A stretch of DNA of 64,000 bases. It comes from Bacteroidales bacterium. Lineage in GTDB: Bacteria > Bacteroidota > Bacteroidia > Bacteroidales > UBA10428. The notes under the pieces are model-generated. The model worked only from the letters and a program-made list of their open reading frames with translations, was not told the DNA's origin and did not search any database. The stretch is taken from positions 70,066 to 134,065 of the forward strand of contig DATGXG010000002.1 in assembly GCA_035299085.1 (NCBI GenBank). Direction: 5' to 3'. This document shows, piece after piece, positions 4,508 through 48,463 of this stretch. A program made the translations under genes and the position numbers. Numbering within the stretch: the stretch's first letter is position 1; every line of letters starts with the position of its first letter.

Positions 4508-4526
4508 TCAACTGAAAATAGCAGGC

Positions 4527-4558
4527 AAAAAAAAAGGTTCATTTTTCAATGAACCTTT
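4527..4558 (-). terminator. Rho-independent terminator downstream of dnaA
   Basis: 10-bp stem aaaggttcat/atgaaccttt with a 6-nt loop. On the minus strand it is followed by a run of about 9 T. Confidence 0.75.
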
Positions 4559-4564
4559 TTGTAT

Positions 4565-16121: not shown

Positions 16122-16148
16122 AAGTTTTCAAATTCCAGTTTGAGTGTG

Positions 16149-16178
16149 CGGCTCAGGTTAATCCCTGAGCCGTTTTTT
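16149..16178 (+). terminator. Rho-independent terminator after the OMP gene
   Basis: 9-bp GC-rich stem cggctcagg/cctgagccg, loop ttaatc, then TTTTTT. The T-run overlaps the trmD stop codon. Confidence 0.8.
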
Positions 16179-16887
16179 ATTCCCTGTCCTTTCCCTTTCT
16201 CCTGTTTACAGGTTCTCTGAGTAAATCAGGCCGAAGTTTTAATGTTCTTTCTTCCGATTGCTGATGACGCCATTCATCAATGTTCTTCTGATGCCCTGAT
16301 ATGAGTATTTCAGGAACTTTCCAGCCTTTATATTCTGCCGGACGGGTATACACAGGGGGAGCAAGCAAATTATCCTGGAATGAATCCGTAAGTGCAGATG
16401 TTTCATCAGAAATGCCTCCCGGAAGAAGCCTTACAACACAATCCGTAATTACGGCTGCAGCCAGTTCGCCACCGGACAATACATAATCACCAACCGAAAT
16501 TTCACAGGTAACCAGGTAATCCCTTACCCGCTGATCCACTCCTTTATAATGGCCGCATAACAATATTATATTCTCACATGTGGCCAGGTAATTTGCCCGT
16601 CTCTGGCTGAAAGTCTCACCATCGGGAGTGAGGTATATAATCTCATCATAGCTGCGTTCACTTTTCAGCTTGGTAATCAGCAGGTCAATAGGTTCGATGC
16701 ACATGACCATACCTGCACCTCCTCCAAAAGAATAATCATCAACCTGCTTTTGCTTATTCTGAGAGTAGTCCCTTATGTTGTGAATCACAATTTCAACAAC
16801 GTTTTTCTCCCGGGCCCTTTTTATGATGGAATGGCTGAGAGGACTTTCGAGCAGTTCAGGAAGGATTGTCAGTATGTCTATGCGCAT
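16177..16887 (-). CDS. trmD: tRNA (guanine37-N1)-methyltransferase
   Basis: 236 aa. [12 protein letters not shown] start, [13 protein letters not shown] and [13 protein letters not shown] motifs. Confidence 0.95.
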
Positions 16888-25635: not shown

Positions 25636-25673
25636 ATAGAAATAAATTAGGCCGGTTAATCCCATAAAATTAA

Positions 25674-25681
25674 TAAATTTG
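25674..25681 (+). promoter_or_regulatory. Candidate -7 box (TAAATTTG) for the NIPSNAP gene
   Basis: 29 nt upstream of the ATG at 25710. It lies inside the rejected 5' extension of the GH127 ORF. Confidence 0.45.
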
Positions 25682-25709
25682 AAATGCAACAGTCATTTCA
25701 AATTAAATT

Positions 25710-30557: not shown

Positions 30558-30565
30558 TATATTTG
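30558..30565 (+). promoter_or_regulatory. Candidate -7 box (TATATTTG) for the GH130 gene
   Basis: 31 nt upstream of the ATG at 30596. It overlaps the TTG at 30563 used by the ORF track. Confidence 0.45.
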
Positions 30566-30595
30566 ATTCGGATCAAGAAACCAAAATATTTACCT

Positions 30596-31777
30596 ATGAA
30601 CACTGAATATAAAGAACGGCTGAAACTGCTTGAAGAATCATACAAATCGCTCATTACCAAAAAGAACAGGAAGGTACTTCCGGGCAACGGAATTTTTGAC
30701 CGGTATGAGAACCCGGTATTGACCGGTGATCATGCTCCTCTCTTCTGGAGGTATGATCTGAATCCTGAGACCAATCCGTTCCTTATGGAGCGATTTGGCA
30801 TACATGCTGCATTCAATGCAGGCGCCATGAAATTCAGAGGAAAATACCTGCTCATAGCCAGGGTTGAAGGAAACGACCGTAAATCGTTTTTTGCAGTAGC
30901 TGAAAGTCCGAATGGCATCGATAACTTCACTTTCTGGGATTACCCTGTTAAGCTTCCACAGGTGGAAAATCCTGAGACAAACGTGTATGATATGCGACTC
31001 ACAGCCCACCAGGATGGCTGGATATATGGTATATTCTGCGCGGAGCATAAAGACCCCCAGGCAGCCGACGGTGACCTGTCGTCAGCCGTTGCAAAGGCCG
31101 GCATAGTCAGGTCCAAAGACCTCATTAACTGGGAAAGGCTTCCAGATCTTGTTTCAAAGAGCCAGCAACGGAATGTGGTTCTTCATCCTGAATTTGTAAA
31201 TGGCAAATATGCCCTTTATACAAGGCCGCAGGATGGATTTATCGATGCAGGAAAAGGCGGAGGAATAGGCTGGGCCCTGATTGATGATATGACACATGCC
31301 GTGGTTAAAGAAGAAAAGATTATCAATCACCGGTATTACCACACGATAAAGGAAGTTAAAAATGGTGAAGGTCCCCACCCCATTAAAACACCAAAAGGAT
31401 GGCTTCATCTTGCCCATGGGGTAAGGGGTTGCGCTGCAGGCTTACGCTATGTCCTTTATATGTATATGACTTCCCTTAACGATCCGTCTGAAATGATCGC
31501 CGAACCTGCAGGTTTCCTTATGGCTCCTGAAGGCGAAGAGCGTGTGGGTGATGTATCCAACGTGTTGTTTACGAACGGATGGATTACAGAAGAGGATGGT
31601 ACTGTCTTTCTTTACTACGCCTCCTCTGATACCCGCATGCATGTTGCCACATCCACAGTTGACAGGCTTGTTGATTATTGCCTTAACACGGCACCTGACG
31701 GTTACCTTTCAGCCACTTCGGTAGATACTTTATCGGCTTTGATCAGCAAAAACCTGCAATACCTCGGAAAGAAATAA
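30596..31777 (+). CDS. GH130 4-O-beta-D-mannosyl-D-glucose phosphorylase-type glycoside phosphorylase
   Basis: 393 aa. Long near-identical blocks to my recollection of the Bacteroides fragilis MGP sequence, e.g. [91 protein letters not shown]. Confidence 0.9.
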
Positions 31778-31780
31778 ATA

Positions 31781-32974
31781 ATGAATTCAGAATTATTAAC
31801 AAACCTTGGTACCCGGGCAAATGGAGAACTAACCGAAAATATTCTCCCTTTCTGGATAAATAAAGCCATCGATAAAATCAACGGTGGCTTTTACGGCCAG
31901 ATCGATGGTTATGGAAAAGTTATACCTCAGGCCGATAAAGGAGGCATCCTGAATGCAAGGATTTTATGGACTTTTTCGGCAGCCTATAACCTGCTGGAAG
32001 ATGACCTGTATCTGGATACGGCCCGTATGAGCCTTGACTACGTTCTTAACCATTTCTTTGACAACGAAAATGGCGGAACATTCTGGAAAATCACATTTGA
32101 TGGCAAACCGTCGGATACCAAGAAACAGATATACTCGCAGGCTTTTTTCATTTACGCTCTTTCTGAATTTTATAAAGCAAGCAACGATAGAACAAGTCTT
32201 GAAAAGGCCATTACTCTCTTCCGGTTAATCGAAGAAAAGAGTTTTGACAGGGAAAAGAACGGCTATTTTGAGGCATATAGCCGCGAATGGAGTCTTCTTG
32301 AAGACCTTCGCCTGAGTCTTAAAGATGCCAATGAAAAGAAGACAACGAATACACATCTTCACATTCTTGAAGCTTACACCAACCTTTACCAGGTATGGAA
32401 GAATGAAGACCTTGAAAAACAATTACGAAACCTGGTGAACCTTTTTCTTGACCGCATAATTGATCCTGTTTCCCGTCATATGCTTTTGTTTTTCGATGAG
32501 AACTGGAATTCACGTTCTTCGCTTGTTTCATACGGACATGATATTGAAGCATCATGGCTCATTTATGAAGGGGCAAGAGTATTGGGCGACAAGACCCTGG
32601 TTGAAAAAGCAAGGTCCCTGTGCGTTGAACTCGGAATTGCATCACTTGAGGGATTTCAGCCTGACGGAAGCATGATCTACGAGAAAGATGATGATAAAGG
32701 CATTCATGATACCGACCGTCACTGGTGGCCGCAGGCGGAAACCGTTGTCGGCCTTCTCAACCTTCATTCGCTTACGGGTGATTCTTCCTATGCCGAGAAG
32801 GCCGTTTCATGCTGGAACTATATTGAGAAGTACATAATCGACAGGCAGAACGGAGAATGGTACTGGAGCATAAAGAATGGAAAGCCTAATTTGGCAGAGG
32901 ACAAGGCAGGCTTCTGGAAATGCCCTTATCACAATGCCCGTGCATGTATTGAAGTAATAAAGAGAACATACTGA
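31781..32974 (+). CDS. AGE-family epimerase, cellobiose 2-epimerase-like
   Basis: 397 aa. (alpha/alpha)6 AGE motifs (HWWPQAE, WKCPYHNARAC). Lies 3 nt after the GH130 gene, matching the known CE-MGP mannan pathway pairing. Confidence 0.8.
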   Translation: MNSELLTNLGTRANGELTENILPFWINKAIDKINGGFYGQIDGYGKVIPQADKGGILNARILWTFSAAYNLLEDDLYLDTARMSLDYVLNHFFDNENGGTFWKITFDGKPSDTKKQIYSQAFFIYALSEFYKASNDRTSLEKAITLFRLIEEKSFDREKNGYFEAYSREWSLLEDLRLSLKDANEKKTTNTHLHILEAYTNLYQVWKNEDLEKQLRNLVNLFLDRIIDPVSRHMLLFFDENWNSRSSLVSYGHDIEASWLIYEGARVLGDKTLVEKARSLCVELGIASLEGFQPDGSMIYEKDDDKGIHDTDRHWWPQAETVVGLLNLHSLTGDSSYAEKAVSCWNYIEKYIIDRQNGEWYWSIKNGKPNLAEDKAGFWKCPYHNARACIEVIKRTY

Positions 32975-35289: not shown

Positions 35290-37182
35290 TCACTCAGTAA
35301 ACTGCAATATCCTTGTTTCATAGGGTAGAAGCCTGATTATCCTTCGACTGACAGCGTGAGTATCTCTAATGGTTCCGTAATTGAACTTAACCGAATTGAT
35401 TCGTCTGACGGTTATAAGCTTATTGAATCGGTTAAGATTAATACTTTGTGGGACAGTTGTAAAATTAGCAAGAAAGATAAGCCCGTGATCCTCATTTTTC
35501 AGAATAAAACCATCGACCACCAAAGGCTTACTGCTTAATGATTTGACAATTTTATAGCTTTCACCAATTAACCGGAATATATGGTATACAGGGAAAATTG
35601 TGTATTCTTCAGCCGGGAATAACCCGGTTTGTAAAGACCTTTTTCCCATTAAAATGCCACGCTCCCCAATGGTTTCATAGTAAGTAACCGATTCTATTCC
35701 TGATTCAAGAACTGATTTCAAACTACCGACAGTCCAGGCTGCAGCGAAAAGCGACATTTGCCTAACGTCGACCTGATCAGGCATATGATCGGTGTTATAC
35801 GGGAGCTCATAATTGATCATATTGGCATTGAAGCGCCTTTTCAACGTTACCGGTGAAACATGGATCTTCTTTCCTCCGGTAACAGCAAAAGCCGAATTAA
35901 TGGCATCACGCTGCGCTGTCATGTTTTCAAATAACGTACTGTCATCATTGGCATGCTCCTGAGGGTGTATCGCGAACGACAGAAAATCGAGTGATCCCGA
36001 TGATGGTGTCATACGGTTCAATTCGGCAAAATTGCAATTTGTGCCCGCGCCAACCCGGATTCCGGGGAAATATTTTTTAACTTCAGGCAGGATGCTTTTT
36101 ACTATATCAGGCGGTGTCGATTTATGATCGCGTGAAAACAATAATATTGAAGATAAATCAACCGGAGTTTCTTTATAAATTGACAAGAATTTATCCCATT
36201 CGCCCCTGCAATTATCTCCGAAAACAAGGCATAAGACAACAGGTAACTGGAGCTGAACAGCCTCATTTAAAATTCTTCTATACCGCAAACTCCAGTTATT
36301 TTCAAAAAGGAGGATCTCCCCCCTGAGATGACGGAAACCTGTCCTTTTCAACAATTCAGCTTCCCGTGCAGTCATCTCAAACACAGCAGAAGAAACACAG
36401 GTACCAAGGGAAGGCATAGGTAAATCCGGACCGTTTAAGGGAAAGAAATTAATGATCTCAGAACCGCAAGATGAATTTGATTTTCCGTCAATCTTTATAG
36501 TAACTGACTGGCTAACCTTTGTGTTCTTTTTAAGCAATACGGGGAAAGGAATTTCAAGCGGTGTACTATAAGTTTTATAGGAAGCATCCGTCCAGTTTCT
36601 CTGGTCTTCAGTCTCAAACAGGTCGCCTTTGAATTGCAGGGTTACCTTATTGCTCCTGTCATAGTTCCATGACATTCCTGATATGTTTTTAAACGGCTGA
36701 TGCGGAGCTATTTTTTCGGGAAACATGCGTTTTTCAGTCGTTCCGTCCGGATGGGCAATAATGCATTCCTTTCCGCGGCATGTTTCGGGTGGATGTAATA
36801 GGCAGATGCCAATCCGGTTCTTTAGAAAATCAGTTTGTGCAGAACCCTTCATCTCATATGAAAGAATGTTTTGTGATGTGCCGGTTATGCGGATTTCAGA
36901 CAAAAACTCTATTTCGTTTTTTGAATACTGCACTGATAATTGAATGACAAATTCTTTGCCGGAAATGCTTATATTTTCGGTGAGGATTTTTTGCGGAACA
37001 TTCAGCCAAGCGTGATCCCTGACGGCCACATAAATCATTCGTATGACTTCATAACCGTTAATTGAAATATTGCGAAGTGTACCTTCTGAATATTCAACAG
37101 TTAAATTTCCCGCCCTCAATGTTTTGTATTTTGGGAAAGGGCAATCGGAACCATGTAACTTTTGTAAGGTGGTGTAAGGCAT
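35290..37182 (-). CDS. Cytoplasmic 630-aa protein of unassigned family; candidate sugar-lactone/sugar-acid enzyme of the adjacent locus
   Basis: Long clean ORF with no signal peptide, 10 nt downstream of the regulator gene on the same strand. I cannot name any motif with confidence. Confidence 0.5.
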   Translation of the reverse strand: MPYTTLQKLHGSDCPFPKYKTLRAGNLTVEYSEGTLRNISINGYEVIRMIYVAVRDHAWLNVPQKILTENISISGKEFVIQLSVQYSKNEIEFLSEIRITGTSQNILSYEMKGSAQTDFLKNRIGICLLHPPETCRGKECIIAHPDGTTEKRMFPEKIAPHQPFKNISGMSWNYDRSNKVTLQFKGDLFETEDQRNWTDASYKTYSTPLEIPFPVLLKKNTKVSQSVTIKIDGKSNSSCGSEIINFFPLNGPDLPMPSLGTCVSSAVFEMTAREAELLKRTGFRHLRGEILLFENNWSLRYRRILNEAVQLQLPVVLCLVFGDNCRGEWDKFLSIYKETPVDLSSILLFSRDHKSTPPDIVKSILPEVKKYFPGIRVGAGTNCNFAELNRMTPSSGSLDFLSFAIHPQEHANDDSTLFENMTAQRDAINSAFAVTGGKKIHVSPVTLKRRFNANMINYELPYNTDHMPDQVDVRQMSLFAAAWTVGSLKSVLESGIESVTYYETIGERGILMGKRSLQTGLFPAEEYTIFPVYHIFRLIGESYKIVKSLSSKPLVVDGFILKNEDHGLIFLANFTTVPQSINLNRFNKLITVRRINSVKFNYGTIRDTHAVSRRIIRLLPYETRILQFTE

Positions 37183-37192
37183 TTTCTTAAAA

Positions 37193-38203
37193 TCATAGCG
37201 ATTTTCTCCTGATGAAACGGCATGGATTGAAAAGCTTCTCCCTGCTGCCGGTCAGAATCATTTCAGCCGCAGTATTGCCCATAGCCTCAAAATCGGTAGA
37301 AATTACAGAGATACCTCCCTCCAGTATTTCCCGCATGGGAGAATCATCATAGGCAATTAATCCAATATCTTTCCCAATTTTCAGTTTCTGATTTTTAGCC
37401 TCCTTAATGATATAAATAAGGTCACTGTCGGGAAAAACAAGGAAGCAATCCCCTGTTTTAAAATCCTGGTCCTTTATGGAAGCAATTACCTCGCCGTTGT
37501 GTGCGGAATCATGTACAAACTTTTCAAAACCCGCTATCAGTCCCGAAGGTACAAACTGAAAACGGTTGGCTGATTTGCAGAATACAAGTCGCTTATATTT
37601 TTTCAGAACGGGCTCTGCATCAGTAAGAGCCTTGTAGATATCCTCCCTGAAATTCTGGCAGATGCTGGCATACTTTCCTTTCAGTTGTGGAACCGTCTTA
37701 TCGATGATCAGAAGCTTTTCCCTTGGAATTTTATCAAGAACAGGTGAAACATCATGGTTAAAATGAGGCATAATAACGTAATAGTTGTACTTGCCGACCG
37801 ATTCTTCAATCATTGACCTGAACCTCTCATCATCGTAATGATGAAAAAAAACCTGGACTGCTGCATCAGCGCCGATCCGGTTGTGAAAAGCATCGTAAAG
37901 TACTTCCTTATAGGAGCTGATGCGGTCGAACAGGACAAAAATGTTAAGCTTTCGGGTTATTTTTGTATTAAGCACGTAGTAGCCCTTGCCTCTTTTGGAA
38001 CCCAGGATACCGCTCCGGCATAAATCATCATAAGCCCTGAGGACAGTGCCAGGGGATATACTGAACTCCCGGCACAGTTGATTTATTGAAGGAAGTCTTT
38101 CATCCATCCGTAATACACCTTTTTCTATGGCCAGGGTTATGCTTTCCCTAAGCTGTTCATAGATGGGAGTAATATCGTCAGTATGAATTGTTATGAAATT
38201 CAT
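37193..38203 (-). CDS. Transcriptional regulator: GntR-type winged HTH plus a LacI/periplasmic-binding-fold sugar-sensing domain
   Basis: PIYEQL...LPSINQLCREFSISPGTVLRAYDDL (GntR HTH), then a PBP-like body. Start moved to MNFITIHT (ATG 38203); the longer ORF runs through the promoter palindrome. Confidence 0.8.
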   Translation of the reverse strand: MNFITIHTDDITPIYEQLRESITLAIEKGVLRMDERLPSINQLCREFSISPGTVLRAYDDLCRSGILGSKRGKGYYVLNTKITRKLNIFVLFDRISSYKEVLYDAFHNRIGADAAVQVFFHHYDDERFRSMIEESVGKYNYYVIMPHFNHDVSPVLDKIPREKLLIIDKTVPQLKGKYASICQNFREDIYKALTDAEPVLKKYKRLVFCKSANRFQFVPSGLIAGFEKFVHDSAHNGEVIASIKDQDFKTGDCFLVFPDSDLIYIIKEAKNQKLKIGKDIGLIAYDDSPMREILEGGISVISTDFEAMGNTAAEMILTGSREKLFNPCRFIRRKSL

Positions 38204-38208
38204 TTTTT

Positions 38209-38242
38209 GTACAAAAATATAAAATAGATTTTTATATTTGTA
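38209..38242. promoter_or_regulatory. 34-nt AT-rich palindrome holding two divergent -7 boxes (minus TATTTTTG at 38212-38219, plus TATATTTG at 38233-38240). Candidate operator.
   Basis: tgtacaaaaatataaaa-tag-atttttatatttgta, followed by the reiterated ATAAGTAT words at 38248-38280. Confidence 0.5.
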
Positions 38243-38296
38243 TTGAATAAGTATGAATAAGTATATATAAGTATAAATAAGTTTACCTTCACTATT

Positions 38297-39298
38297 ATGA
38301 TTCTTGTACAAAATTACACGCTTGCCGTCTTATTATGTGTACTGGCCATGATTTGCTGGGGATCGTGGCAAAACACACAAAACCTCACAGGAAAAGGATG
38401 GCGCTTTGAATTGTATTATTGGGATTTTATCCTTGGCATATTTATTTTTTCATTAATCATGGCTTTTACATTCGGCAGTCTTGGTCATGAAGGCAGGCCG
38501 TTCCTTGCAGACCTGCGACAGGCTTCGCCCGGCTATTTGATCAGTGCAGCCTTAGGAGGGGCAATATGGAACCTTGGAACGCTATTGCTTATTGCTGCTA
38601 TATCCATTGCCGGCATGTCAGTCGCATTTCCTATTGGCGGCGGGATTGGCTGGATACTGGGTATTGTGATCAACTACATAGGTATGCCCGAAGGCAATCC
38701 TGTCCTCCTTTTCGGAGGATCTGCCATTATCATCCTGGCCATTATTTTCAGCATGATTTCCTACAGGCGTTTGGCTAATGCCCAGCATAAAGCGCCCTTA
38801 AAGGGAATCCTTCTTTCGTTTGCTGCAGGATTAATGATTGCCTTCTTTTACAGGTTTGTTGCCTCTTCACTTGACACAACCTTTACTGCAGAAAACTCAG
38901 GTAAAATAACATCTTACACGGCTGTCGTTATTTTTTCAATCGGCGCCATTATTTCAACAGTTATTTTCAACCCTTTGTTTATGCGCTACCCTATCCAGGG
39001 TGATAGAGTAAGTATTGCGGATTATCTCAAGGGTAATTACCGAACGCACTTTTTTGGAATGCTTGGAGGAGCCATATGGTGCCTTGGAAATTCGGTGAGT
39101 TTCATGGCAGTGAATTCGGCCAGTCCTGCCATTTCATACGGACTCAGCAATTCTGCACCGGTGGTTGCAGCTATATGGGGTATTTTTGTATGGAAAGAAT
39201 TCCGTGAGGCCCCAACCGGCACATCCAGACTGCTTACTATGATGTTCATCTGCTATCTTATTGGTCTTTCCTTAATAGTATATTCACGAATCGGGTAA
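38297..39298 (+). CDS. DMT-superfamily sugar permease (GRP/RhaT-like, about 10 TM)
   Basis: 333 aa, uniformly hydrophobic, with two similar 5-TM halves. First gene of the sugar operon. Confidence 0.65.
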   Translation: MILVQNYTLAVLLCVLAMICWGSWQNTQNLTGKGWRFELYYWDFILGIFIFSLIMAFTFGSLGHEGRPFLADLRQASPGYLISAALGGAIWNLGTLLLIAAISIAGMSVAFPIGGGIGWILGIVINYIGMPEGNPVLLFGGSAIIILAIIFSMISYRRLANAQHKAPLKGILLSFAAGLMIAFFYRFVASSLDTTFTAENSGKITSYTAVVIFSIGAIISTVIFNPLFMRYPIQGDRVSIADYLKGNYRTHFFGMLGGAIWCLGNSVSFMAVNSASPAISYGLSNSAPVVAAIWGIFVWKEFREAPTGTSRLLTMMFICYLIGLSLIVYSRIG

Positions 39299-39308
39299 AA
39301 CACAATCT

Positions 39309-40697
39309 ATGAAAGCTTTTCCTGTTTTAGTTTTAATTTTTATCCTTACCGGGTCGCTCTCTGGCCAGATAAAACCTATTGAAGGTCCCTCGGTTGACCT
39401 GACGCATGGTAAGCTTGTGGTATCACAAAACCACCGCTTTCTTCAATTCACAGACGGCACACCTTTCTTTTATTTAGGAGATACGGGTTGGGAGTTTTTT
39501 CACAGACTGAATTACAAGGAGGCTGAAAAATATCTTGAAAACCGCAGGATGAAGGGATTTACAGTAATCCAGGCAGTCATACTGGCAGAACTTGATGGAT
39601 TGAACACTCCCAACCGAAATGGAGACAGGCCTTTAATTGACAATGATCCGTTAAAACCCAATGAAAGGTATTTCTTATATGTAGACAGCCTCATCAGGCT
39701 TGCTGCTTCAAAAGGAATTTTTATAGGGTTATTGCCAACCTGGGGTGACAAGATCGACAGGGCATGGGGAAAGGGTCCGGTTATCTTCAATACTCAAAAC
39801 GCTTATTCCTATGGACAATATCTCGGCAACCGGTATAAAGATTTCCCGAATATTATATGGATCAACGGAGGAGACCGTCCGGGCGGTAAAAGCGCAGATG
39901 GCAAATCCGATAATTTCCCGGTTTGGGACGCGCTGGGAAAAGGAATAAAATCAGTAGACCACAATCACCTGATGACTTTTCATCCTATGGGTGAAAGCAG
40001 TTCATCCAACTGGTTTCATAACTGCGACTGGCTTGATTTCAATATGACACAGACAGGTCACGGGCAACGGAGTTATGCCATCTATCATATGATAAAGGAT
40101 GATTATAACCGGAAGCCCATAAAGCCCTGTATGGATGGTGAACCCAGGTATGAAGATCACCCCATTAACTGGCAACCCGATTCCCTGGGTTGGTTCAACG
40201 AAATGCATGTCAGGCAGGCAGCATACTGGAACCTGTTTACCGGGGCTCATGGTCATACTTACGGCTGCCACCCCATATGGCAAATGGCAGCTCCCGGAAG
40301 GGATTTCGTAGGCTATGCAAGGCATTACTGGTACGATGTGCTTGATTTGCCCGGTTCATGGCAAATGCTGAATGTCAGGAGACTTATTGAATCAAGGCCT
40401 ATGCTGAACCGCGTCCCTTTCCAGGAAATTGTAATCAATCCCGGTGATGAGTATGGATATATTGTGGCCACTAAAGGAGACGGCTATATAATGGTCTACA
40501 CTCCGCTGGGTAATGAAATTCAGCTGAACGGGAACCTGTTACCGGCTAATGAATATAAAGTCAGCTGGTATGATCCACGGTCAGGCAAGACAGCAAAAGG
40601 AACAAATGTTAAGAAAAGTGCGGTTCTCAAATTTGAAGCTCCTTCAAGGGGACCCGGATTCGACTGGATTCTGATACTTGATGCCGCAGCAAAATAA
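39309..40697 (+). CDS. GH140-like (DUF4038) secreted glycoside hydrolase, apiosidase-family homologue
   Basis: 462 aa. Signal peptide. FLQFTDGTPFFYLGDTGWEFFHRL and GFTVIQAVILAE blocks are typical of DUF4038/GH140. C-terminal beta-sandwich-like tail. Confidence 0.7.
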   Translation: MKAFPVLVLIFILTGSLSGQIKPIEGPSVDLTHGKLVVSQNHRFLQFTDGTPFFYLGDTGWEFFHRLNYKEAEKYLENRRMKGFTVIQAVILAELDGLNTPNRNGDRPLIDNDPLKPNERYFLYVDSLIRLAASKGIFIGLLPTWGDKIDRAWGKGPVIFNTQNAYSYGQYLGNRYKDFPNIIWINGGDRPGGKSADGKSDNFPVWDALGKGIKSVDHNHLMTFHPMGESSSSNWFHNCDWLDFNMTQTGHGQRSYAIYHMIKDDYNRKPIKPCMDGEPRYEDHPINWQPDSLGWFNEMHVRQAAYWNLFTGAHGHTYGCHPIWQMAAPGRDFVGYARHYWYDVLDLPGSWQMLNVRRLIESRPMLNRVPFQEIVINPGDEYGYIVATKGDGYIMVYTPLGNEIQLNGNLLPANEYKVSWYDPRSGKTAKGTNVKKSAVLKFEAPSRGPGFDWILILDAAAK

Positions 40698-41509
40698 TGA
40701 AATTAGGGATCAGCACATATACGTATACCTGGGCATTCGGAATACCGGGACAGCAGCCGGAGGTTCATATGGATCCTTTCGGCCTGATTGATAAAGCTGC
40801 GGATTTTGGGATCGACTGTGTGCAGATTGCTGACAACTTTGACCTATCTGCACTTGATTCCGCACGATTATCGGTCCTTGCATCTTATGCAGCAAAGAAA
40901 AACATCGAAATTGAAGCCGGATCGAGGGGATTGACCGAAGAAAACCTGGACCGGTGCATTGATGTGGCAAAAAAACTGTCATCTCCCATTTTACGAATGG
41001 TCATTGATCAGAAGGATTATAAACCCGCACCGGATACTGTTATTTCAATTATCAGAAATGCAGCATCCAAACTGGCCTCACAAAAAATCACACTTGTCCT
41101 TGAAAACCACGACAGGCTGCCCTCCATTGTATTCAGGGAAATTATTGAGAAATCAGGAACTGAATTTGCTGCGATCTGCCTTGATTGTGTAAACTCAATG
41201 GGAATCGGGGAAGGATTGCAGACTGTGATCGAAAACCTTGCCCCGCTTACCGTTAATCTTCACGTTAAGGATTTCTCGGTGAAAAGGTTATCCCATATGA
41301 TGGGCTTCTTAATTGAAGGTAAACCGGCAGGACAAGGTTTCCTTGAGTTGCCCCTGATCCTGGAAAAATTGAATGCATACGGCAAATGCCGGAGCGCCAT
41401 CCTTGAACTATGGACCCCGCCTGCAACGCAGGTTGAAGAAACCCTGAAACGTGAGGAGGAATGGGCAACTGAAAGTATAGTTTACCTGAAAAAAATAATG
41501 AAGCCATGA
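40697..41509 (+). CDS. Xylose-isomerase-like TIM-barrel protein (sugar phosphate isomerase/epimerase family)
   Basis: 270 aa. LVLENH and LHVKD metal-site-like motifs. The start overlaps the upstream stop (TAATG). Confidence 0.7.
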   Translation: MKLGISTYTYTWAFGIPGQQPEVHMDPFGLIDKAADFGIDCVQIADNFDLSALDSARLSVLASYAAKKNIEIEAGSRGLTEENLDRCIDVAKKLSSPILRMVIDQKDYKPAPDTVISIIRNAASKLASQKITLVLENHDRLPSIVFREIIEKSGTEFAAICLDCVNSMGIGEGLQTVIENLAPLTVNLHVKDFSVKRLSHMMGFLIEGKPAGQGFLELPLILEKLNAYGKCRSAILELWTPPATQVEETLKREEEWATESIVYLKKIMKP

Positions 41510-42336
41510 ATACAAAAATCACTCTTGTCGGAGCCGGAGGCAAAATGGGAATGCGGCTTTCCCGGAACCTTAAAGATTCGGAATACAAAATGTTTTACCT
41601 CGAGGTAAGCCAGGCCGGGATCGACCGTCTGAAGGAAATCGGGCTGGCCGTTTCCGATGAAAAGGAAGTTGTCAGCCAGTCGGATGTGGTTATACTGGCC
41701 GTTCCTGATACTGCACTGGCTAAGATTTCATCGGTTATCATTCCGCAAATGAAGCCCGGCTCGCTGGTTATGACCCTTGATCCGGCGGTTGCCCGGGCCG
41801 GAAGGCTATATCTGAGGAAGGATGTGGCCTATTTTATAGCACATCCTGCACATCCTTCGGTATTCAACTGGGAACCGACACCGGAAGCTCAAAAGGATTT
41901 TTTCGGCGGTACACTTGCCAAACAGGCCATTGTTTGTGCGTTAATGCAGGGAGAGGATAAGGATTACCTCCTTGGCGAAAACATTTCGAAAAAAATGTAC
42001 AGTCCGGTTTACCAGGCATTTAAAATAACCATGGAACAAATGGCTTTGCTTGAGCCGGCTCTTGTGGAGACACTTTCTTCCTCGTGCCTTGACCTGGTTA
42101 GAGAAGGAATGGAAGAGATTATTAAAAGAGGGGTTCCGGCTGATGCAGCCCGGGCTTTTTTACTGGGCCATATAAATATTCAGCTTGCCGTGCTCTTTAA
42201 AGAACTTCCGAACGCTGTATTTTCAGATGCAGCAAATAAAGCACTTGAGAGAGGGCGCCGCATTCTTTTCAAGGAAGACTGGAAAAAAATCTTTGAGCCC
42301 GAGAATGTATTACAACAGGTGATTGATATAACCTAA
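41506..42336 (+). CDS. NAD(P)-binding oxidoreductase with a 6-phosphogluconate-dehydrogenase-like C-terminal domain
   Basis: 276 aa. Rossmann ITLVGAGGKMG at the N-terminus. ATGA overlap with the upstream gene. Confidence 0.65.
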   Translation: MNTKITLVGAGGKMGMRLSRNLKDSEYKMFYLEVSQAGIDRLKEIGLAVSDEKEVVSQSDVVILAVPDTALAKISSVIIPQMKPGSLVMTLDPAVARAGRLYLRKDVAYFIAHPAHPSVFNWEPTPEAQKDFFGGTLAKQAIVCALMQGEDKDYLLGENISKKMYSPVYQAFKITMEQMALLEPALVETLSSSCLDLVREGMEEIIKRGVPADAARAFLLGHINIQLAVLFKELPNAVFSDAANKALERGRRILFKEDWKKIFEPENVLQQVIDIT

Positions 42337-42346
42337 TTATCAAAAA

Positions 42347-43384
42347 ATGAATAAACTGAGATTTGCTGTTTTTGGATGCGGCTTCTGGTCGAAATTCCAG
42401 GTTGGCGCATGGACGGAAATTGAAGGGGTCGAACTCGTTGCCCTTTATAACCGTACCCTTTCAAAAGCCAAAGCCCTTGCTGAAATGTTTCATGTACCTG
42501 CAGTATATGACGATGCAGAAGAATTACTGAAGAATGAAAAACTTGATTTTGTAGAAATCATTACAGATGTTGATACCCATGAACTTTTTACAACGCTGGC
42601 GGTAAAACATAACATAAAAAACATTATCTGCCAGAAACCGATGGCCCCTTCCTTTGAGGCAGCCAACCGGATGGTTACTCTCTGCCGGAACGCCGGAGTC
42701 AACCTGTACATTCATGAGAATTACCGCTGGCAGGCGCCAGTCAGAAGGTTTAATGAAATCATCAAATCGGGCGTTATCGGGACTCCTTTCAAGGCAAGGG
42801 TTTCGTTCCTATCGGGTTATCCGGTGTTCGACAATCAGCCTTTCCTGGCTGAACTGGATAAATTCATCCTTACCGATATGGGATCCCATATTCTTGATGT
42901 AACCCGCTATTTATTCGGTGAGGTAAAATCGCTTTGGTGCCAGACCCTAAGCATAAACCCGGGTATCAAAGGGGAAGACCTGGCAACGGTGATGATGGAA
43001 ATGAAGAACGGCATGCCGGTTTATACTGAAATGTCGTATGCATCTATTGTTGAGCATGATTCATTTTCAACCGTACATATTTTAGTTGAAGGTGATAAAG
43101 GCTCAGTATTTTTGGGGCCGGGTTTTGAAATAAAAATAACTACACGACAGGGAACCGTTTCTGAAATAGTAAGATTTCCTTCCTATTCATGGGCCGATCC
43201 CGATTATATCGTCAATCATGAAAGCGGGATACCGCTGTCACGGAACATTCTGGCTGATATGCTCAAAAAAGGGAAGGCTGAAAATACCGGTACAGATAAT
43301 TTTGAAACGGTAAAGCTGGTATGGGCTTGCTATGAATCAGCCGCAACAGGGAAAATTATAGTATTGGAAAATTTTGCTAAATGA
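42347..43384 (+). CDS. Gfo/Idh/MocA family oxidoreductase
   Basis: 345 aa. LRFAVFGCGFWS Rossmann start and the EKP-type motif CQKPMA. Confidence 0.8.
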   Translation: MNKLRFAVFGCGFWSKFQVGAWTEIEGVELVALYNRTLSKAKALAEMFHVPAVYDDAEELLKNEKLDFVEIITDVDTHELFTTLAVKHNIKNIICQKPMAPSFEAANRMVTLCRNAGVNLYIHENYRWQAPVRRFNEIIKSGVIGTPFKARVSFLSGYPVFDNQPFLAELDKFILTDMGSHILDVTRYLFGEVKSLWCQTLSINPGIKGEDLATVMMEMKNGMPVYTEMSYASIVEHDSFSTVHILVEGDKGSVFLGPGFEIKITTRQGTVSEIVRFPSYSWADPDYIVNHESGIPLSRNILADMLKKGKAENTGTDNFETVKLVWACYESAATGKIIVLENFAK

Positions 43385-44014: not shown

Positions 44015-44100
44015 TGTTTGAGGTTTGAGGTGTGGGACCAAAACTTCTTAAATCAAAAATCGGTGTTCGGTGTTCGGTGTTCCATGTTTGATGTTTAATG
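44015..44100. repeat. Cluster of heptamer arrays: TGTTTGAGGTTTGAGG, (CGGTGTT)x3 at 44061-44081, TGTTTGATGTTTAATG
   Basis: Read directly. Confidence 0.7.
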
Positions 44101-44113
44101 TTATGGATTAATT

Positions 44114-44121
44114 TATATTTG
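44114..44121 (+). promoter_or_regulatory. Candidate -7 box (TATATTTG)
   Basis: 19 nt upstream of the ATG at 44140. It lies inside the rejected 5' extension starting at 44098. Confidence 0.45.
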
Positions 44122-44139
44122 GAGCAAAATATTTCCACA

Positions 44140-45558
44140 ATGTATTCACCCGAAGAATTCAGAAAGGAAGCACATAAGCTGGTCGACTGGATTGCCGATT
44201 ATTATACTGAAATCGAAAAATATCCTGTGAAGGCCGCCATAAAGCCGGGATCAGTGTTTGCACAGATTCCTGCGGCACCTCCGGAAGCTCCCGAAGAAAT
44301 GGATGCTATTTTCAAAGACTTTCAGGATATCATTTTACCCGGGATCACTCACTGGCAGAACCCTTCGTTCTTTGCATACTTTCCGGCAAACAGCAGTTTT
44401 CCGTCTCTCCTCGGTGACTTTTTATCCTCAGCGCTGGGAGCACAGTGCATGAAATGGGAGACATCACCTTCCGCTACCGAGCTTGAAGAAGCCGTCATGA
44501 TCTGGCTCAGGAAAATGACAGGGCTTCCTGATTCGTTCACCGGTGTTATACAGGACACAGCTTCTACATCAACACTTGCAGCCATTATATCGGCGAGGGA
44601 ACGGGCGACAGGTTTTGCCGTTAACAACAACGGAATGACGTCGGTTATGCGAGTGTACTGTTCATCCGAGGCTCATTCTTCAGTTGAAAAGGCAGTTAAA
44701 ATAGCAGGTATCGGTAAAAACAATCTCGTGAAAATTCAAACAGACGATCAGTTCAGAATGAACCCGGCAGAACTTGAAAAAGCAATTACCGGTGATCTGA
44801 AAAGGGGTTTGTTGCCTGTTTGCGTTGTGGCTGCTATTGGTACTACCGGATCTACAGCAGTGGATCCCCTTCAGGATATCGCTGAAATATGCTCAAAACA
44901 CAGGGTCTGGCTCCATGTTGACGCCGCGTTTGCAGGTTCAGCCCTTTTGCTGCCTGAATACAGGTGGATTATTAAAGGTGTTGAAAAGGCCGATAGTCTC
45001 GTATTCAACCCTCATAAATGGCTGTTCACGAATTTCGATTGTTCGGCCTATTTCGTGAAGGATGTGGAAACGCTGATTGATACCTTCAAACTCATACCGG
45101 AATATCTCAGGACCCAGATCCCGGAACATGTAAATGATTATTCCAACTGGGGAATACAATTGGGAAGGCGATTCAGGGCGCTAAAGCTCTGGTTTGTAAT
45201 TCGTTCCTTTGGTATAAAAGGCCTGCAGAACCGGCTCAGAGAACAGCTTTCCATTGCTTCCGAACTTAAATCATGGATTGAACAATCGCCTGAATTCGAA
45301 ATCCTTGCCCCGGTACACTTTAACCTGGTGTGCTTCAGGTTTCATCCTGCAGGAATCGATGGCCTGGATGAGCTTAACCGGATCAATGAAAAACTAATGC
45401 TTGAAGTGAACAAAACCGGCAAAATGTACATTACCCATACCAAATTAAATGGAATTTTTACATTGAGAATGATAACCGCCCAGACGAATGTTCAGCACCA
45501 TCATGTTAAAAATGGCTGGGATTTGATTGTTGAGAAATCAAAATCCGTTCTTAATTAA
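44140..45558 (+). CDS. PLP-dependent group II decarboxylase (aromatic-L-amino-acid/tyrosine decarboxylase-like)
   Basis: About 472 aa. THWQNPSFFAYFP, the NPHKW PLP-lysine motif and DAAFAGSA are all typical of DDC/TDC enzymes. Confidence 0.85.
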   Translation: MYSPEEFRKEAHKLVDWIADYYTEIEKYPVKAAIKPGSVFAQIPAAPPEAPEEMDAIFKDFQDIILPGITHWQNPSFFAYFPANSSFPSLLGDFLSSALGAQCMKWETSPSATELEEAVMIWLRKMTGLPDSFTGVIQDTASTSTLAAIISARERATGFAVNNNGMTSVMRVYCSSEAHSSVEKAVKIAGIGKNNLVKIQTDDQFRMNPAELEKAITGDLKRGLLPVCVVAAIGTTGSTAVDPLQDIAEICSKHRVWLHVDAAFAGSALLLPEYRWIIKGVEKADSLVFNPHKWLFTNFDCSAYFVKDVETLIDTFKLIPEYLRTQIPEHVNDYSNWGIQLGRRFRALKLWFVIRSFGIKGLQNRLREQLSIASELKSWIEQSPEFEILAPVHFNLVCFRFHPAGIDGLDELNRINEKLMLEVNKTGKMYITHTKLNGIFTLRMITAQTNVQHHHVKNGWDLIVEKSKSVLN

Positions 45559-45569
45559 ACAACAAAGAA

Positions 45570-47012
45570 ATGGCATCAATTCTTCAGCTGTTAGAAAACC
45601 TTTACACTAAATGGAGCCAGCACAAGCCGGTTTCCATTGTGCCCCTCCCGGCCTCGGGTTCTTACCGCACCTATTACAGGATAACTTCTGAAATTGGCAG
45701 TGTGCTAGGCGTTCATAATGCCGACAAAAGGGAGAACGAAGCATTTGTTTACTTAAGCAACCATTTGAAAGCAAAAGGCAACAGGGTACCCAACGTATTG
45801 ATTACCGACCTCGATCATCATGTTTATATTGAAGAAGACCTGGGCAACGATACGCTTTTCGATTACCTGGCACGATTGAGAAATAAATCGTGCACCGTTG
45901 AGGATATACTTAAGGTATACAGAAATGTGATTGACGCAATGCCCGGTTTGCAGGTACGCTCAATTGAAGACCTTGATTTTTCACAATGTTACCCTCGTGC
46001 TGAGTTTGATGTTCAGAGCATGATGTGGGACATGAACTATTTCAAATACTGCCTGCTGAAACCATTGAAAATTGAGTTTTTTGAGCAGGACCTCGAAGAT
46101 GACTTTCTGACAATCGTAAAATGGCTTATTGAAGCCGACAGGGAATCATTTATGTTCCGCGATTTTCAGTCACGGAACATCATGCTTGTGAATGGCAATC
46201 CATGGTTCATCGATTACCAGGGAGGCCGGCGGGGACCGCTTCAGTACGATCTTGCCTCTTTGTTGTTCGAAGCCAAGACTCACCTTTCGGAGGATATCAG
46301 GAAACAGCTTCTTGAATATTACCTTGATGTTTTCAGCAAAACTTTTCCATGGTTTAACCGGGATACTTTTGTCAGGTATTATTATGGTTTTGTTTACCTG
46401 CGTTTAATGCAGGCGATGGGCGCTTACGGTTTCAGGGGATATATAGAACACAAGCCGTTATTTCTTCAAAGCCTTCCTTATGCCATAAAAACTCTCAGGT
46501 GGCTCATTGAAAACGAGCCCCTGCCGCTTCACCTCACAAGTCTGCCCCATGTGTTTGACAAGCTCATGAACCTGCCGCAGGTGAAATCATACGAAGTGCG
46601 GCCTGACGAATTTACCATTACGATAAACAGTTTTTCATATAAAAACGGCATACCTGAAGACCTGTCGGGTAACGGCGGAGGATTTGTATTCGATTGCAGA
46701 AGTCTTGAAAATCCCGGACGGTACCAGGAATACAAGACGTTTTCAGGGAAGGACCAGCCGGTTATCGATTTTCTTCAAAACCGTCCTGAAACTGTCGAGT
46801 TTCTTTCGCATGCCTCTTCCATGGTGCAGAATGCAGCAAGTAACTACCTTCATCGGGGATTTTCTCACCTCATGGTCAGTTTCGGATGTACCGGCGGACA
46901 GCACCGGTCGGTATATTTTGCCGAAAAAATGGCTTCCTGGCTAAGGGAAAATGTGAAGGCTAATGTAGTCGTTGTTCATCATGAACTGGCAAAAAAAATA
47001 TCCGGAGCATGA
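45570..47012 (+). CDS. Fusion protein: APH-fold anomeric sugar kinase (AmgK-like) plus a RapZ/YvcJ C-terminal domain
   Basis: N-terminal region has FRDFQSRNIM...FIDYQGGRRGPLQYDLASLL (APH/AmgK catalytic loop). C-terminal region has INSFSYKNGIPED...FVFDCRSLENP...GCTGGQHRSVYFAE, which aligns with my recollection of E. coli RapZ FESFGFKHGIPID...FDVRFLPNP...GCTGGKHRSVYIAE. Confidence 0.8.
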   Translation: MASILQLLENLYTKWSQHKPVSIVPLPASGSYRTYYRITSEIGSVLGVHNADKRENEAFVYLSNHLKAKGNRVPNVLITDLDHHVYIEEDLGNDTLFDYLARLRNKSCTVEDILKVYRNVIDAMPGLQVRSIEDLDFSQCYPRAEFDVQSMMWDMNYFKYCLLKPLKIEFFEQDLEDDFLTIVKWLIEADRESFMFRDFQSRNIMLVNGNPWFIDYQGGRRGPLQYDLASLLFEAKTHLSEDIRKQLLEYYLDVFSKTFPWFNRDTFVRYYYGFVYLRLMQAMGAYGFRGYIEHKPLFLQSLPYAIKTLRWLIENEPLPLHLTSLPHVFDKLMNLPQVKSYEVRPDEFTITINSFSYKNGIPEDLSGNGGGFVFDCRSLENPGRYQEYKTFSGKDQPVIDFLQNRPETVEFLSHASSMVQNAASNYLHRGFSHLMVSFGCTGGQHRSVYFAEKMASWLRENVKANVVVVHHELAKKISGA

Positions 47013-47752
47013 AAGCAATGATCCTGGCGGCCGGTAAAGGAACACGCATGATGCCTCTTACGCTTGACACTCCGAAACCGCTGATAGAAATACAGGGAAT
47101 ATCGCTCCTGGAACATACAATCCGGTATCTTAAGTACTACGGTGTGACCGAGATAATAATCAACATCCATCACCTGCCTGATCAGATTATTGATTTTGTC
47201 AACCGAAATAATTCATTCGGAATTCATATTGAATTTTCAGATGAATCCGGGGAACTTCTTGATACTGGCGGAGGACTCTATAAGGCAGGATGGTTTTTTG
47301 ATGATTGCGAACCCTTCATCCTGACCTCATCGGATGTGATTACGACCCTGAATCTTCATCAAATGATGCAGGAATTTAAAGATGCCGATCCGCTGGTACT
47401 CCTTGCAGTGAAGCACCGGAATTCAACAAGGGATTTTATTTTTGACTCAGAGTATAACCTGATTGGCTGGCATAACAATAAAACCGGTGAAAACCGGCTC
47501 ATCCGCCAGGAAAATGAATTTACAAGAGCTGCTTTCAGTACAATCCATGTTATCCACCCCCGGATTATCGATTTGATCACCGAAAGAAACAGGTTTTCGA
47601 TAATTGACCTTTACCTTCGGCTGGCCCTTGAGCATAAAGTAAAGGGATTCCTTCACGATGATTCTGAATGGTTTGAATGCGGCCGGTTTGAGAGTCTGGA
47701 TATGCTTAACCGTTCGGATGAAATCAAGCGGATAATTAAAAAATATGAGTAA
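47009..47752 (+). CDS. Sugar-1-phosphate nucleotidyltransferase (MurU-like)
   Basis: 247 aa. MILAAGKGTRMMPLT signature. ATGA overlap with the kinase gene. Confidence 0.8.
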   Translation: MKAMILAAGKGTRMMPLTLDTPKPLIEIQGISLLEHTIRYLKYYGVTEIIINIHHLPDQIIDFVNRNNSFGIHIEFSDESGELLDTGGGLYKAGWFFDDCEPFILTSSDVITTLNLHQMMQEFKDADPLVLLAVKHRNSTRDFIFDSEYNLIGWHNNKTGENRLIRQENEFTRAAFSTIHVIHPRIIDLITERNRFSIIDLYLRLALEHKVKGFLHDDSEWFECGRFESLDMLNRSDEIKRIIKKYE

Positions 47753-47761
47753 TTTTACCGC

Positions 47762-48463
47762 ATGGACAACAGAATAGATGCGTGGAACGAGCGTTTTGCA
47801 AAAGCGCCCGCCGAAGAAGTGGTTGAATTTTTCAACAGTGAATTCGGACAGGAAATATGCCTGTCTTCAAGTATGGGAGCCGAAGACCAGGTTCTTACCC
47901 ATATGCTCATGAAGGTTAATCCCTCTTTCAGAATTTTTACACTCGATACAGGACGCCTTTTCCCGGAAACCCTGGATCTTATCCAAAAAACAAGAGACCA
48001 TTATAATACATCAATAGAAGTATTTTTCCCCGATTACCGGATGGTTCAGCAAATGGTTCGTGAAAAGGGAATAAACCTTTTTTACGCCAGCGTGGAAGAC
48101 AGAAAATATTGCTGCAACGTCAGAAAAATGGAGCCCCTTAAAAGAGCCCTTTCAGGAATGAAAGCCTGGATGACGGGTATCCGGAAAGATCAGACAATCA
48201 ACCGGTTTAATACACAGGTTGTGGAATGGGATGAAGCAAACGCTATCGTAAAAATCAATCCCCTGTATCGCTGGTCAGAAAAAATGGTTTGGGAATACAT
48301 CCGCTCAAACCAAATTCCTTATAATGAACTGCATGACAGGAACTTCCCCAGTATAGGCTGTCAACCCTGCACCAGGGCTGTCACCCCCGGAGAAGACACA
48401 CGTGCCGGTCGCTGGTGGTGGGAAGACCAGGGACATAAAGAATGCGGTTTGCACATCAAATAG
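47762..48463 (+). CDS. cysH: Phosphoadenylyl-/adenylyl-sulfate reductase (thioredoxin-dependent, Fe-S type)
   Basis: 233 aa. SSMGAEDQVL, the Cys pairs YCCNVRK and GCQPCT, and C-terminal KECGLH. Confidence 0.85.
   Translation: MDNRIDAWNERFAKAPAEEVVEFFNSEFGQEICLSSSMGAEDQVLTHMLMKVNPSFRIFTLDTGRLFPETLDLIQKTRDHYNTSIEVFFPDYRMVQQMVREKGINLFYASVEDRKYCCNVRKMEPLKRALSGMKAWMTGIRKDQTINRFNTQVVEWDEANAIVKINPLYRWSEKMVWEYIRSNQIPYNELHDRNFPSIGCQPCTRAVTPGEDTRAGRWWWEDQGHKECGLHIK

Follow-up and report, generated by a model that had tools for sequence, protein, structure and literature searches.

The 64-kb window analysed here (64,000 nucleotides; contig DATGXG010000002.1 of assembly GCA_035299085.1, positions 70,066 to 134,065) comes from a soil Bacteroidales bacterium and contains, at positions 35290-43384, a cluster of seven genes that we interpret as a self-contained module for the utilisation of D-apiose, independent of any polysaccharide utilisation locus (PUL). 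D-apiose is a signature sugar of rhamnogalacturonan-II (RG-II), of apiogalacturonan and of many plant glycosides. The module would comprise a periplasmic apiosidase of glycoside hydrolase family 140 (GH140), a single sugar permease, enzymes for four consecutive steps of an oxidative route leading to L-erythrulose, and a regulator. All of the pathway steps are assigned by homology and gene context, and on this basis the probability of the interpretation is estimated at roughly 0.78. The original prediction, made from the letters of the sequence, had read the cluster as a locus for the release, uptake and oxidation of apiose, and this is supported by the computational tests described below, namely homology at each step, gene context and the co-occurrence of the genes in other genomes.

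Organisation of the locus

A map of the open reading frames (ORFs) and a Pfam scan of the window proteins show two minus-strand genes divergent from five closely packed plus-strand genes. Coordinates are those of the window unless another locus is named.

35290-37182, minus strand, ApnL-like protein, 630 aa
37193-38203, minus strand, regulator with GntR and periplasmic-binding-protein (PBP) domains, 336 aa counted from an ATG
38297-39298, plus strand, GRP/DMT-type sugar permease, 333 aa
39309-40697, plus strand, GH140 glycoside hydrolase, 462 aa
40697-41509, plus strand, xylose-isomerase-like triosephosphate isomerase (TIM) barrel, 270 aa
41506-42336, plus strand, ApnO-like NAD-binding protein, 276 aa
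42347-43384, plus strand, ApsD-like Gfo/Idh/MocA oxidoreductase, 345 aa

The regulator may alternatively be read as a longer ORF that begins at a TTG and extends to 38311. Two junctions of the plus-strand genes are overlaps, TAATG at 40695-40699 (1 bp) and ATGA at 41506-41509 (4 bp), and the remaining gaps are of about 10 bp. On the minus strand the ApnL-like gene lies 10 bp downstream of the regulator gene as the second member of a two-gene unit. This is the layout of the original prediction, seven genes in a divergent arrangement with both overlapping junctions, and the protein families given there agree with the Pfam matches: GntR with Peripla_BP_3, Ureide_permease/Sugar_transport, PF13204 with PF12904, PF01261, PF16896 and Gfo/Idh/MocA. 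Hydropathy profiles show a hydrophobic signal segment at the N-terminus of the GH140 and a polytopic permease. None of the remaining five proteins begins with a signal-like segment; the ApnL-like and ApnO-like proteins each have a single internal segment just over the threshold. The placement of the cluster outside any SusC/SusD PUL also holds, no SusC/SusD-type gene being present among the Pfam-scanned ORFs of at least 130 aa in the window.

Candidate enzymes of the oxidative route

The 276-residue ApnO-like protein has a Rossmann N-terminus with a GAGGKMG motif, followed by a PF16896 (PGDH_C) domain matched at 212 bits. Over its full length it is 50.7% identical (296 bits) to the protein of PDB entry 5t57, which is D-apionate oxidoisomerase, apnO, in a published classification (bioRxiv 10.1101/2020.08.24.261826). 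It is also 52% identical to the product of a rhizobial gene that is clustered with ApnL-like, Gfo/Idh/MocA, OiaX and kinase genes. The protein combines both domains with similarity to a solved ApnO, and its gene lies in a cluster with those for the ApsD-like and ApnL-like proteins; it is a putative D-apionate oxidoisomerase forming 3-oxo-isoapionate.

The oxidoreductase encoded immediately downstream matches the Pfam GFO_IDH_MocA and corresponding C-terminal domains. Among solved structures it scores 250 bits with 5uhw (35.6% identity) and at most 73 bits with any other. The 5uhw protein, which we take to be ApsD itself, is 72.7% identical to the product of the Gfo/Idh/MocA gene adjoining ApnL on Shinella plasmid p1 (locus L004). 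The window protein is 35% identical to this ApnL-adjacent Shinella protein, compared with 23% to the other Gfo/Idh/MocA protein of that region. On the same plasmid, a tripartite ATP-independent periplasmic (TRAP) transporter and an ApnL-like gene lie between orthologues of 5t57 (75%) and 5uhw (73%), and the cluster further holds an NCBI-named OiaX and a four-carbon acid sugar kinase. Relatives at 74-82% identity to the window protein bear the Joint Genome Institute (JGI) name D-apiose dehydrogenase. As a member of a Gfo/Idh/MocA subgroup encoded beside ApnL and ApnO, the protein is a putative NAD-dependent D-apiose 1-dehydrogenase with D-apionolactone as its product.

Catabolism of inositol, rhamnose or fucose was considered as another assignment and rejected: the matches of the Gfo/Idh/MocA protein to the NCBIfam models for iolG, xylose dehydrogenase and the like reach at most 78 bits against cut-offs of at least 350. 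The closest characterised homologues of the ApnO-like and ApsD-like proteins are the apiose-pathway enzymes 5t57 and 5uhw, with which the JGI names on relatives agree.

The 630-residue protein had been left unassigned in the original prediction, although a resemblance to apionolactonases was suspected. It is now placed by a nearly full-length match to the NCBIfam ApnL model NF049900 (E = 5.8e-82, residues 8-583 against positions 4-593 of 595), at family level, since the score of 276 bits lies below the equivalog cut-off of 750 bits. The local copy of Pfam gives no match for the protein; PF25837 and PF25838 (Apionate_lact_N/M) are listed in the database record for exactly this protein and for relatives, several of which bear the JGI name D-apionolactonase. 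Identity to the gene product in the ApnL position of the rhizobial apiose cluster is 26% over the full length. The AlphaFold2 model (pLDDT 88, pTM 0.90) consists of a (beta/alpha)8 barrel between two beta-sandwiches. A sequence search of the PDB finds no match for the protein, and a fold search of the PDB brings up GH36/GH30-like structures as the nearest, at 8-13% identity, a similarity that is uninformative on a lactonase mechanism. The protein is a distant member of the ApnL family and a putative cytoplasmic lactonase. It evolves fast: between loci with 75-85% identity in the rest of the module proteins, the ApnL-like proteins are 42-50% identical. In comparisons of the window with loci L002, L006, L010 and L011, the ApnL-like proteins are 41-43% identical and the GH140, ApnO-like, dehydrogenase and permease proteins 74-84%.

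For the last step the candidate is the 270-residue PF01261 protein, many relatives of which, at 53-62% identity, bear the JGI name 3-oxoisoapionate decarboxylase. Residues E136, D163, H189 and E237 are invariant in the alignment and, being of the types usual in the metal sites of this fold, presumably serve as metal ligands. No NCBIfam model matches the protein, and the PDB search gives a marginal match, to Art22 (E = 0.004). From the JGI names and the gene context it is a putative decarboxylase of unphosphorylated 3-oxoisoapionate, yielding L-erythrulose and CO2. The enzyme name given in the original prediction, 3-oxo-isoapionate decarboxylase, fits; the label OiaX does not, because OiaX is a RuBisCO-like enzyme acting on a phosphorylated substrate. 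OiaX has the RuBisCO large-chain fold, a length of about 415 residues and a four-carbon acid sugar kinase encoded beside it, as with the NCBI-named OiaX of L004 (418 aa, 46% identical to a PF00016 protein), features that the PF01261 barrel of the window does not share. Neither a RuBisCO-like protein nor the kinase of that branch was found in the window.

Recurrence of the gene set in other genomes

The neighbourhoods of ApnL-like genes were compared in 80 loci, taking one genome per species and flanks of 10 kb, by tblastn with the window proteins; many of these contigs are truncated. A module-type GH140, counted at an identity of at least 45%, is present in 25 of the loci, the permease in 28 and the regulator in 15, while the TIM barrel, the ApnO-like protein and the dehydrogenase are found in 34, 35 and 33, respectively. 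The three last occur together in 22 loci and the full set of permease, GH140, TIM barrel, ApnO and Gfo/Idh/MocA in 13, so that the co-occurrence called for by the original prediction is seen. At least one catabolic gene lies alongside 24 of the 25 GH140 genes near ApnL. The GH140 lies inside the operon in 22 of the 28 loci that have the permease, and these belong to several families. At least 13 to 25 other species have the gene set beside an ApnL-like gene, and most of them are uncultured Bacteroidales; carriers are mainly metagenome-assembled genomes (MAGs) of Bacteroidales, Rikenellaceae and Prolixibacteraceae, together with Telluribacter. Locus L061, from the cultured Telluribacter humicola KCTC 42819, has the GH140, TIM barrel, ApnO and Gfo/Idh/MocA genes. 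Contigs L002 and L006 have the same gene order as the window.

Unsupervised clustering of the neighbouring ORFs within 10 kb ranks the seven families of the window as the top seven. The arrangement is not one of chance, because these are the seven families that recur most often near the ApnL-like genes of other genomes. Next in frequency are an ATP-binding cassette (ABC) transporter, a RuBisCO-like protein and a four-carbon acid sugar kinase. No locus has the permease together with the ABC transporter, and the RuBisCO-like protein and kinase occur never with the GH140 and only twice with the TIM barrel. This pattern, full exclusion of permease and ABC transporter and near-exclusion of TIM barrel and RuBisCO-like protein with kinase, points to two alternative architectures of one pathway, of which the window holds the version with permease, GH140 and TIM barrel.

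Several loci depart from this pattern. L003 is otherwise syntenic with the window, has no regulator and has a serine recombinase gene (4031-5533 of that locus) in the place of the dehydrogenase, which suggests that the module there was disrupted by a mobile element. In L009 a rearranged module lies next to fucosidase, GH141-like, sulfatase, SASA and GH92 genes; a protein of 345 aa with no Pfam match (15304-16341 of that locus) is encoded between its TIM barrel and dehydrogenase genes, and a second GH140, fused to DUF5060, is nearby. In 7-10 other genomes the permease-type module comes with a pair of genes that the window lacks (6049-8365 of L015, also in L018, L026, L028, L034, L036 and L062), one for a second PF01261 TIM barrel of about 281 aa and one for a Gfo/Idh/MocA protein of 441 aa that has a C2 domain. 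The pair may take part in additional steps, with L-erythrulose as one conceivable substrate.

The GH140 hydrolase

The hydrolase has the domain pair of GH140, matching PF13204 (Apiosidase) at 403 bits over positions 1-319 of 320 and PF12904 at 76 bits. The closest solved structure is 8t9w, named 'Apiosidase' (432 bits, 48.6% identity over residues 37-462), which falls among the module-type GH140s and shares 66-67% identity with that of the Telluribacter module. With BT1012 of Bacteroides thetaiotaomicron (3kzs/5msy) the score is 267 bits and the identity 38%. D189, in a GGD motif, and E278, in GEPxYE, correspond in the alignment to D167 and E264 of the 3kzs construct and are invariant in GH140 alignments, so the candidate catalytic Asp and Glu looked for in the original prediction are retained. 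We take these two residues to be the equivalents of D187 and E284, the catalytic pair of BT1012 reportedly given by Ndeh et al in 2017. Residues 1-19 form a hydrophobic segment resembling a type I signal peptide. The protein is most likely periplasmic, because this signal peptide has no lipobox cysteine; BT1012 is also reported to be periplasmic. Taken together it is a putative periplasmic beta-D-apiosidase.

The surroundings of related GH140 genes were scanned among the 80 closest JGI metagenome relatives (43-69% identity). A module gene is near 15 of these, or near 2 of the approximately 17 with full 10-kb flanks, and the 80 have no other recurrent neighbour. An exclusive tie of this GH140 clade to the module was considered and rejected, the other 65 relatives having no module gene nearby; rather, the module has recruited the GH140 in some lineages. 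The description of the locus as built around a GH140-like enzyme holds in that the gene lies inside the operon, though not for the enzyme at large, most of whose close relatives sit elsewhere.

BT1012 frees whole side chains ending in apiose and not free apiose. The natural substrate of the window GH140 may be terminal or singly apiosylated material, or else an extra enzyme would be needed.

Uptake and regulation

The permease matches the Pfam families Ureide_permease, Sugar_transport and TMEM144 and, weakly, the RhaT/GlcU subfamily of NCBIfam, and it has about 9-10 hydrophobic segments. It is a putative inner-membrane D-apiose importer of the GRP/DMT type. The orthologues in other ApnL-anchored loci are 48-77% identical.

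In the regulator a GntR domain (residues 15-77) is joined to a Peripla_BP_3 domain (matched at residues 253-319), an architecture like that of AraR, and orthologues of 41-68% identity are present in the 15 ApnL-anchored loci given above, plus L002 and L006. It is the probable repressor of both divergent units. The 93-bp region between the regulator and permease genes contains three features, the two boxes being read from the sequence and compared with TAnnTTTG, which we take to be the Bacteroidetes consensus:

38212-38219, minus strand, candidate Bacteroidetes-type -7 box TATTTTTG of the regulator-ApnL unit
38233-38240, plus strand, candidate Bacteroidetes-type -7 box TATATTTG of the permease-to-dehydrogenase operon
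38246-38283, plus strand, putative operator of four WATAAGTW direct repeats at an exact spacing of 10 bp, starting at 38246, 38256, 38266 and 38276

The repeats directly follow the TATATTTG box and extend over the site at which transcription of the plus-strand operon is expected to begin. WATAAGTW has 14 matches in the whole window, 4 of them inside these 38 bp. A TATATTTG/TATTTG box lies directly before the repeats in L002, L006, L010, L011, L019, L021, L025, L030, L031 and L047, and in a second clade CATAACAGTA repeats take the place of WATAAGTW. Phased repeats upstream of the permease are found in 13 of 16 loci with the GntR regulator, compared with 4 of 17 without it. These observations fit an AraR-like repressor that would sit on the transcription start by way of the phased repeats as a candidate operator. 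A scan for sigma-70 promoters and terminators, which does not cover Bacteroidetes promoters, gave no more than is expected by chance.

Proposed pathway and alternative explanations

In the proposed pathway the GH140, exported to the periplasm by its signal peptide, would cleave beta-D-apiosyl linkages in small apiose-bearing fragments. Pieces of RG-II or apiogalacturonan and apiosylated plant glycosides are possible substrates, small enough to pass the outer membrane without a SusCD pair of their own. The permease would bring the free D-apiose into the cytoplasm, where the ApsD-like enzyme would oxidise it at C1 with NAD(P)+ to D-apionolactone. Opening of the lactone by the ApnL-like protein would give D-apionate, and oxidation and rearrangement of the latter by the ApnO-like PGDH_C enzyme would give 3-oxo-isoapionate, a beta-keto acid that the metal-dependent TIM barrel would decarboxylate to L-erythrulose and CO2. 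The L-erythrulose would be handled by genes outside the module. The AraR-like regulator, bound to the four phased repeats, would block both units as long as its sugar-binding domain is not occupied by apiose or by a pathway intermediate, for example apionate.

Several of the results weigh against this pathway. The window, as searched, yielded neither a kinase nor an isomerase for L-erythrulose. The ApnL-like protein falls short of the equivalog cut-off of its model and is only 26-29% identical to the products of proteobacterial genes in the ApnL position; in 32 of the 80 loci its gene has no other module gene within 10 kb, so that the family possibly does not have a single function. The identity of the ApsD-like protein to its rhizobial and PDB counterparts is only 35-36%, and the putative decarboxylase draws its assignment from JGI names and context. 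Module genes are, as described, near few of the close relatives of the GH140, and a further enzyme may be needed to obtain free apiose because BT1012 releases apiose-terminated chains.

Some of these points would also be expected if the cluster served a different rare sugar, for example another branched-chain or RG-II-derived sugar or sugar acid, which the GH140 would free and paralogues of shifted specificity would catabolise. The low score and rapid divergence of the ApnL-like protein, the modest identity of the ApsD-like protein and the 38% identity of the GH140 clade to BT1012 leave room for such a shift, and an action of ApnO-type enzymes on related acid sugars, D-erythronate among them, has been raised as a possibility (PMC12994016). 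Such a sugar is nevertheless improbable: four consecutive steps all have as their best matches enzymes characterised or annotated in the apiose pathway, the ApnO-like protein is 51% identical to a solved enzyme, the characterised member of GH140 and the closest solved structure are both called apiosidases, and in other phyla these four families are found together with the canonical RuBisCO-like/kinase branch.

Alternatively the apiose pathway may be real and the GH140 a mere neighbour, serving a remote PUL for RG-II or pectin, or some other glycan, while the module is fed by free apiose released by others. Free apiose is to be expected in such communities, as Bacteroides and most of the tested Flavobacterium strains release it to the medium; 65 of the 80 close GH140 relatives are without a module gene or any other recurrent neighbour nearby; and the GH140 is missing from L036, L040 and L053 and from L013, in which the TIM barrel gene comes straight after that of the permease. 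Against this, the gene is embedded in the operon, with a 10-bp gap to the permease gene and a 1-bp overlap with the TIM barrel gene, and this internal position and the company of catabolic genes are kept in other loci (22/28 and 24/25, as above), which makes a bystander role about as improbable as a different sugar. That the genes are functionally unrelated and adjacent by coincidence is a general risk of annotation by homology only, and here the chance of it is negligible. It is effectively refuted by conservation, the seven families recurring in dozens of species-level genomes and in metagenome contigs, with the regulator and the candidate operator travelling along; the junctions are, moreover, operon-like. 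A PUL-independent module for the release, uptake and oxidation of D-apiose is preferred over all three.

Relation to known apiose systems

The oxidative D-apiose pathways reportedly assigned by Carter et al in 2018 proceed through ApsD, ApnL and ApnO and then divide into alternative end branches. Known apiose consumers are mainly Proteobacteria and Actinobacteria with binding-protein-dependent transporters. In the known oxidative clusters, as in the window, genes for a Gfo/Idh/MocA dehydrogenase, a large ApnL lactonase and a PGDH_C ApnO are found together. The end branch of the window, with a PF01261 decarboxylase and unphosphorylated 3-oxoisoapionate, corresponds to an enzyme in the JGI annotation vocabulary; the kinase and RuBisCO-like protein of the classical clusters are lacking, and a periplasmic GH140 is part of the operon. 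Uptake is by a single GRP/DMT permease where the known clusters have a binding-protein-dependent TRAP or ABC system, and the regulator is of an AraR-like GntR/PBP type instead of the NanR/GntR-FCD type. The host also differs, the window being from a Bacteroidales with an ApnL distant from the proteobacterial ones. A Rhodobacteraceae isolate that grows on apiose carries the oxidative apiose pathway (PMC11747546).

The window GH140 shares with BT1012, which belongs to the RG-II PUL of B. thetaiotaomicron, the PF13204 and PF12904 domains, a periplasmic location and the conserved Asp and Glu. BT1012, however, is part of a large SusCD PUL with dozens of carbohydrate-active enzymes (CAZymes), whereas the GH140 is the only CAZyme of its operon and is tied directly to apiose catabolism. 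In Bacillus subtilis AraR a GntR-family helix-turn-helix domain is fused to a LacI/GalR-type sugar-binding domain. The window regulator has in common with AraR-type regulators this two-domain architecture, the divergent placement by a sugar operon and a probable function as repressor; its candidate operator differs, being made of four direct repeats phased at 10 bp where AraR-type regulators have a palindrome.

The chemistry is that of the known oxidative apiose pathway, and JGI names give the same activities to close relatives of three of the catabolic proteins. It is not new biochemistry, because every enzyme family involved is already catalogued. The joining of an apiosidase and a simple permease to these families appears not to have been described previously: no description of this gene combination was found in the searchable literature, in which the work of Carter et al (2018) is not covered. 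According to a 2026 preprint, B. thetaiotaomicron and most of the tested Flavobacterium strains excrete apiose and do not metabolise it. If the assignments are true, the carriers of the module would form a guild of apiose-consuming bacteria of soils and sediments, of relevance to cross-feeding on pectin, and the module would offer a test bed for GH140 specificity, a minimal seven-gene apiose cassette and a candidate pair of apiose-responsive regulator and operator. A broader proposal is more doubtful, though still worth considering: that the module marks a widespread and undescribed lifestyle of Bacteroidales, the PUL-independent scavenging of apiose in the wake of primary RG-II degraders such as Bacteroides and Flavobacterium, through uptake of leftovers capped with apiose or of apiosylated glycosides from plants, with an exo-type or small-substrate GH140 unlike the endo-acting BT1012 and with L-erythrulose perhaps passing to the extra TIM/Gfo pair.

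Surroundings of the module

The genes flanking the cluster are unrelated to it and encode WG repeats, MsrB, a GH130 and epimerase pair and an operon with a pyridoxal phosphate (PLP)-dependent decarboxylase. The pair, at 30563-32974 (plus strand), consists of a GH130-like phosphorylase and an adjacent protein of the N-acylglucosamine 2-epimerase family, a pairing typical of mannoside salvage and not connected with the apiose module. The packed operon directly downstream (44098-48463, plus strand) has an unusual combination of genes, for the PLP-dependent decarboxylase, a fusion of an APH-type kinase with a RapZ C-terminal domain, a nucleotidyltransferase (4-bp overlap) and a PAPS-reductase-family protein; the decarboxylase resembles diaminobutyrate decarboxylase with a score far under the cut-off.

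About 10 kb upstream of the module a lone glycosidase of family GH127 is encoded (23737-25689, minus strand; 385 bits). GH127 includes beta-L-arabinofuranosidases and an enzyme releasing aceric acid from RG-II, and this gene may be linked to pectin fragments. The products of two neighbouring genes, of 480 aa (13105-14547, plus strand) and 506 aa (14601-16121, plus strand), have no Pfam match at E ≤ 1e-5. A sensor of 1281 aa resembling a hybrid two-component system (56743-60588, minus strand) contains Reg_prop, Y_Y_Y, HisKA, HATPase and receiver domains; it lacks the AraC-type DNA-binding domain usual in such systems of Bacteroidota, and there is no PUL beside its gene.

Near-identical sequence is seen in soil metagenome runs only, and the closest related loci are from uncultured Bacteroidales MAGs. 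The window also carries housekeeping genes, among them dnaA (4565-5986, minus strand), and the cumulative GC skew has its minimum at about 24-28 kb. From the presence of dnaA, the region probably lies near the chromosomal origin of replication.

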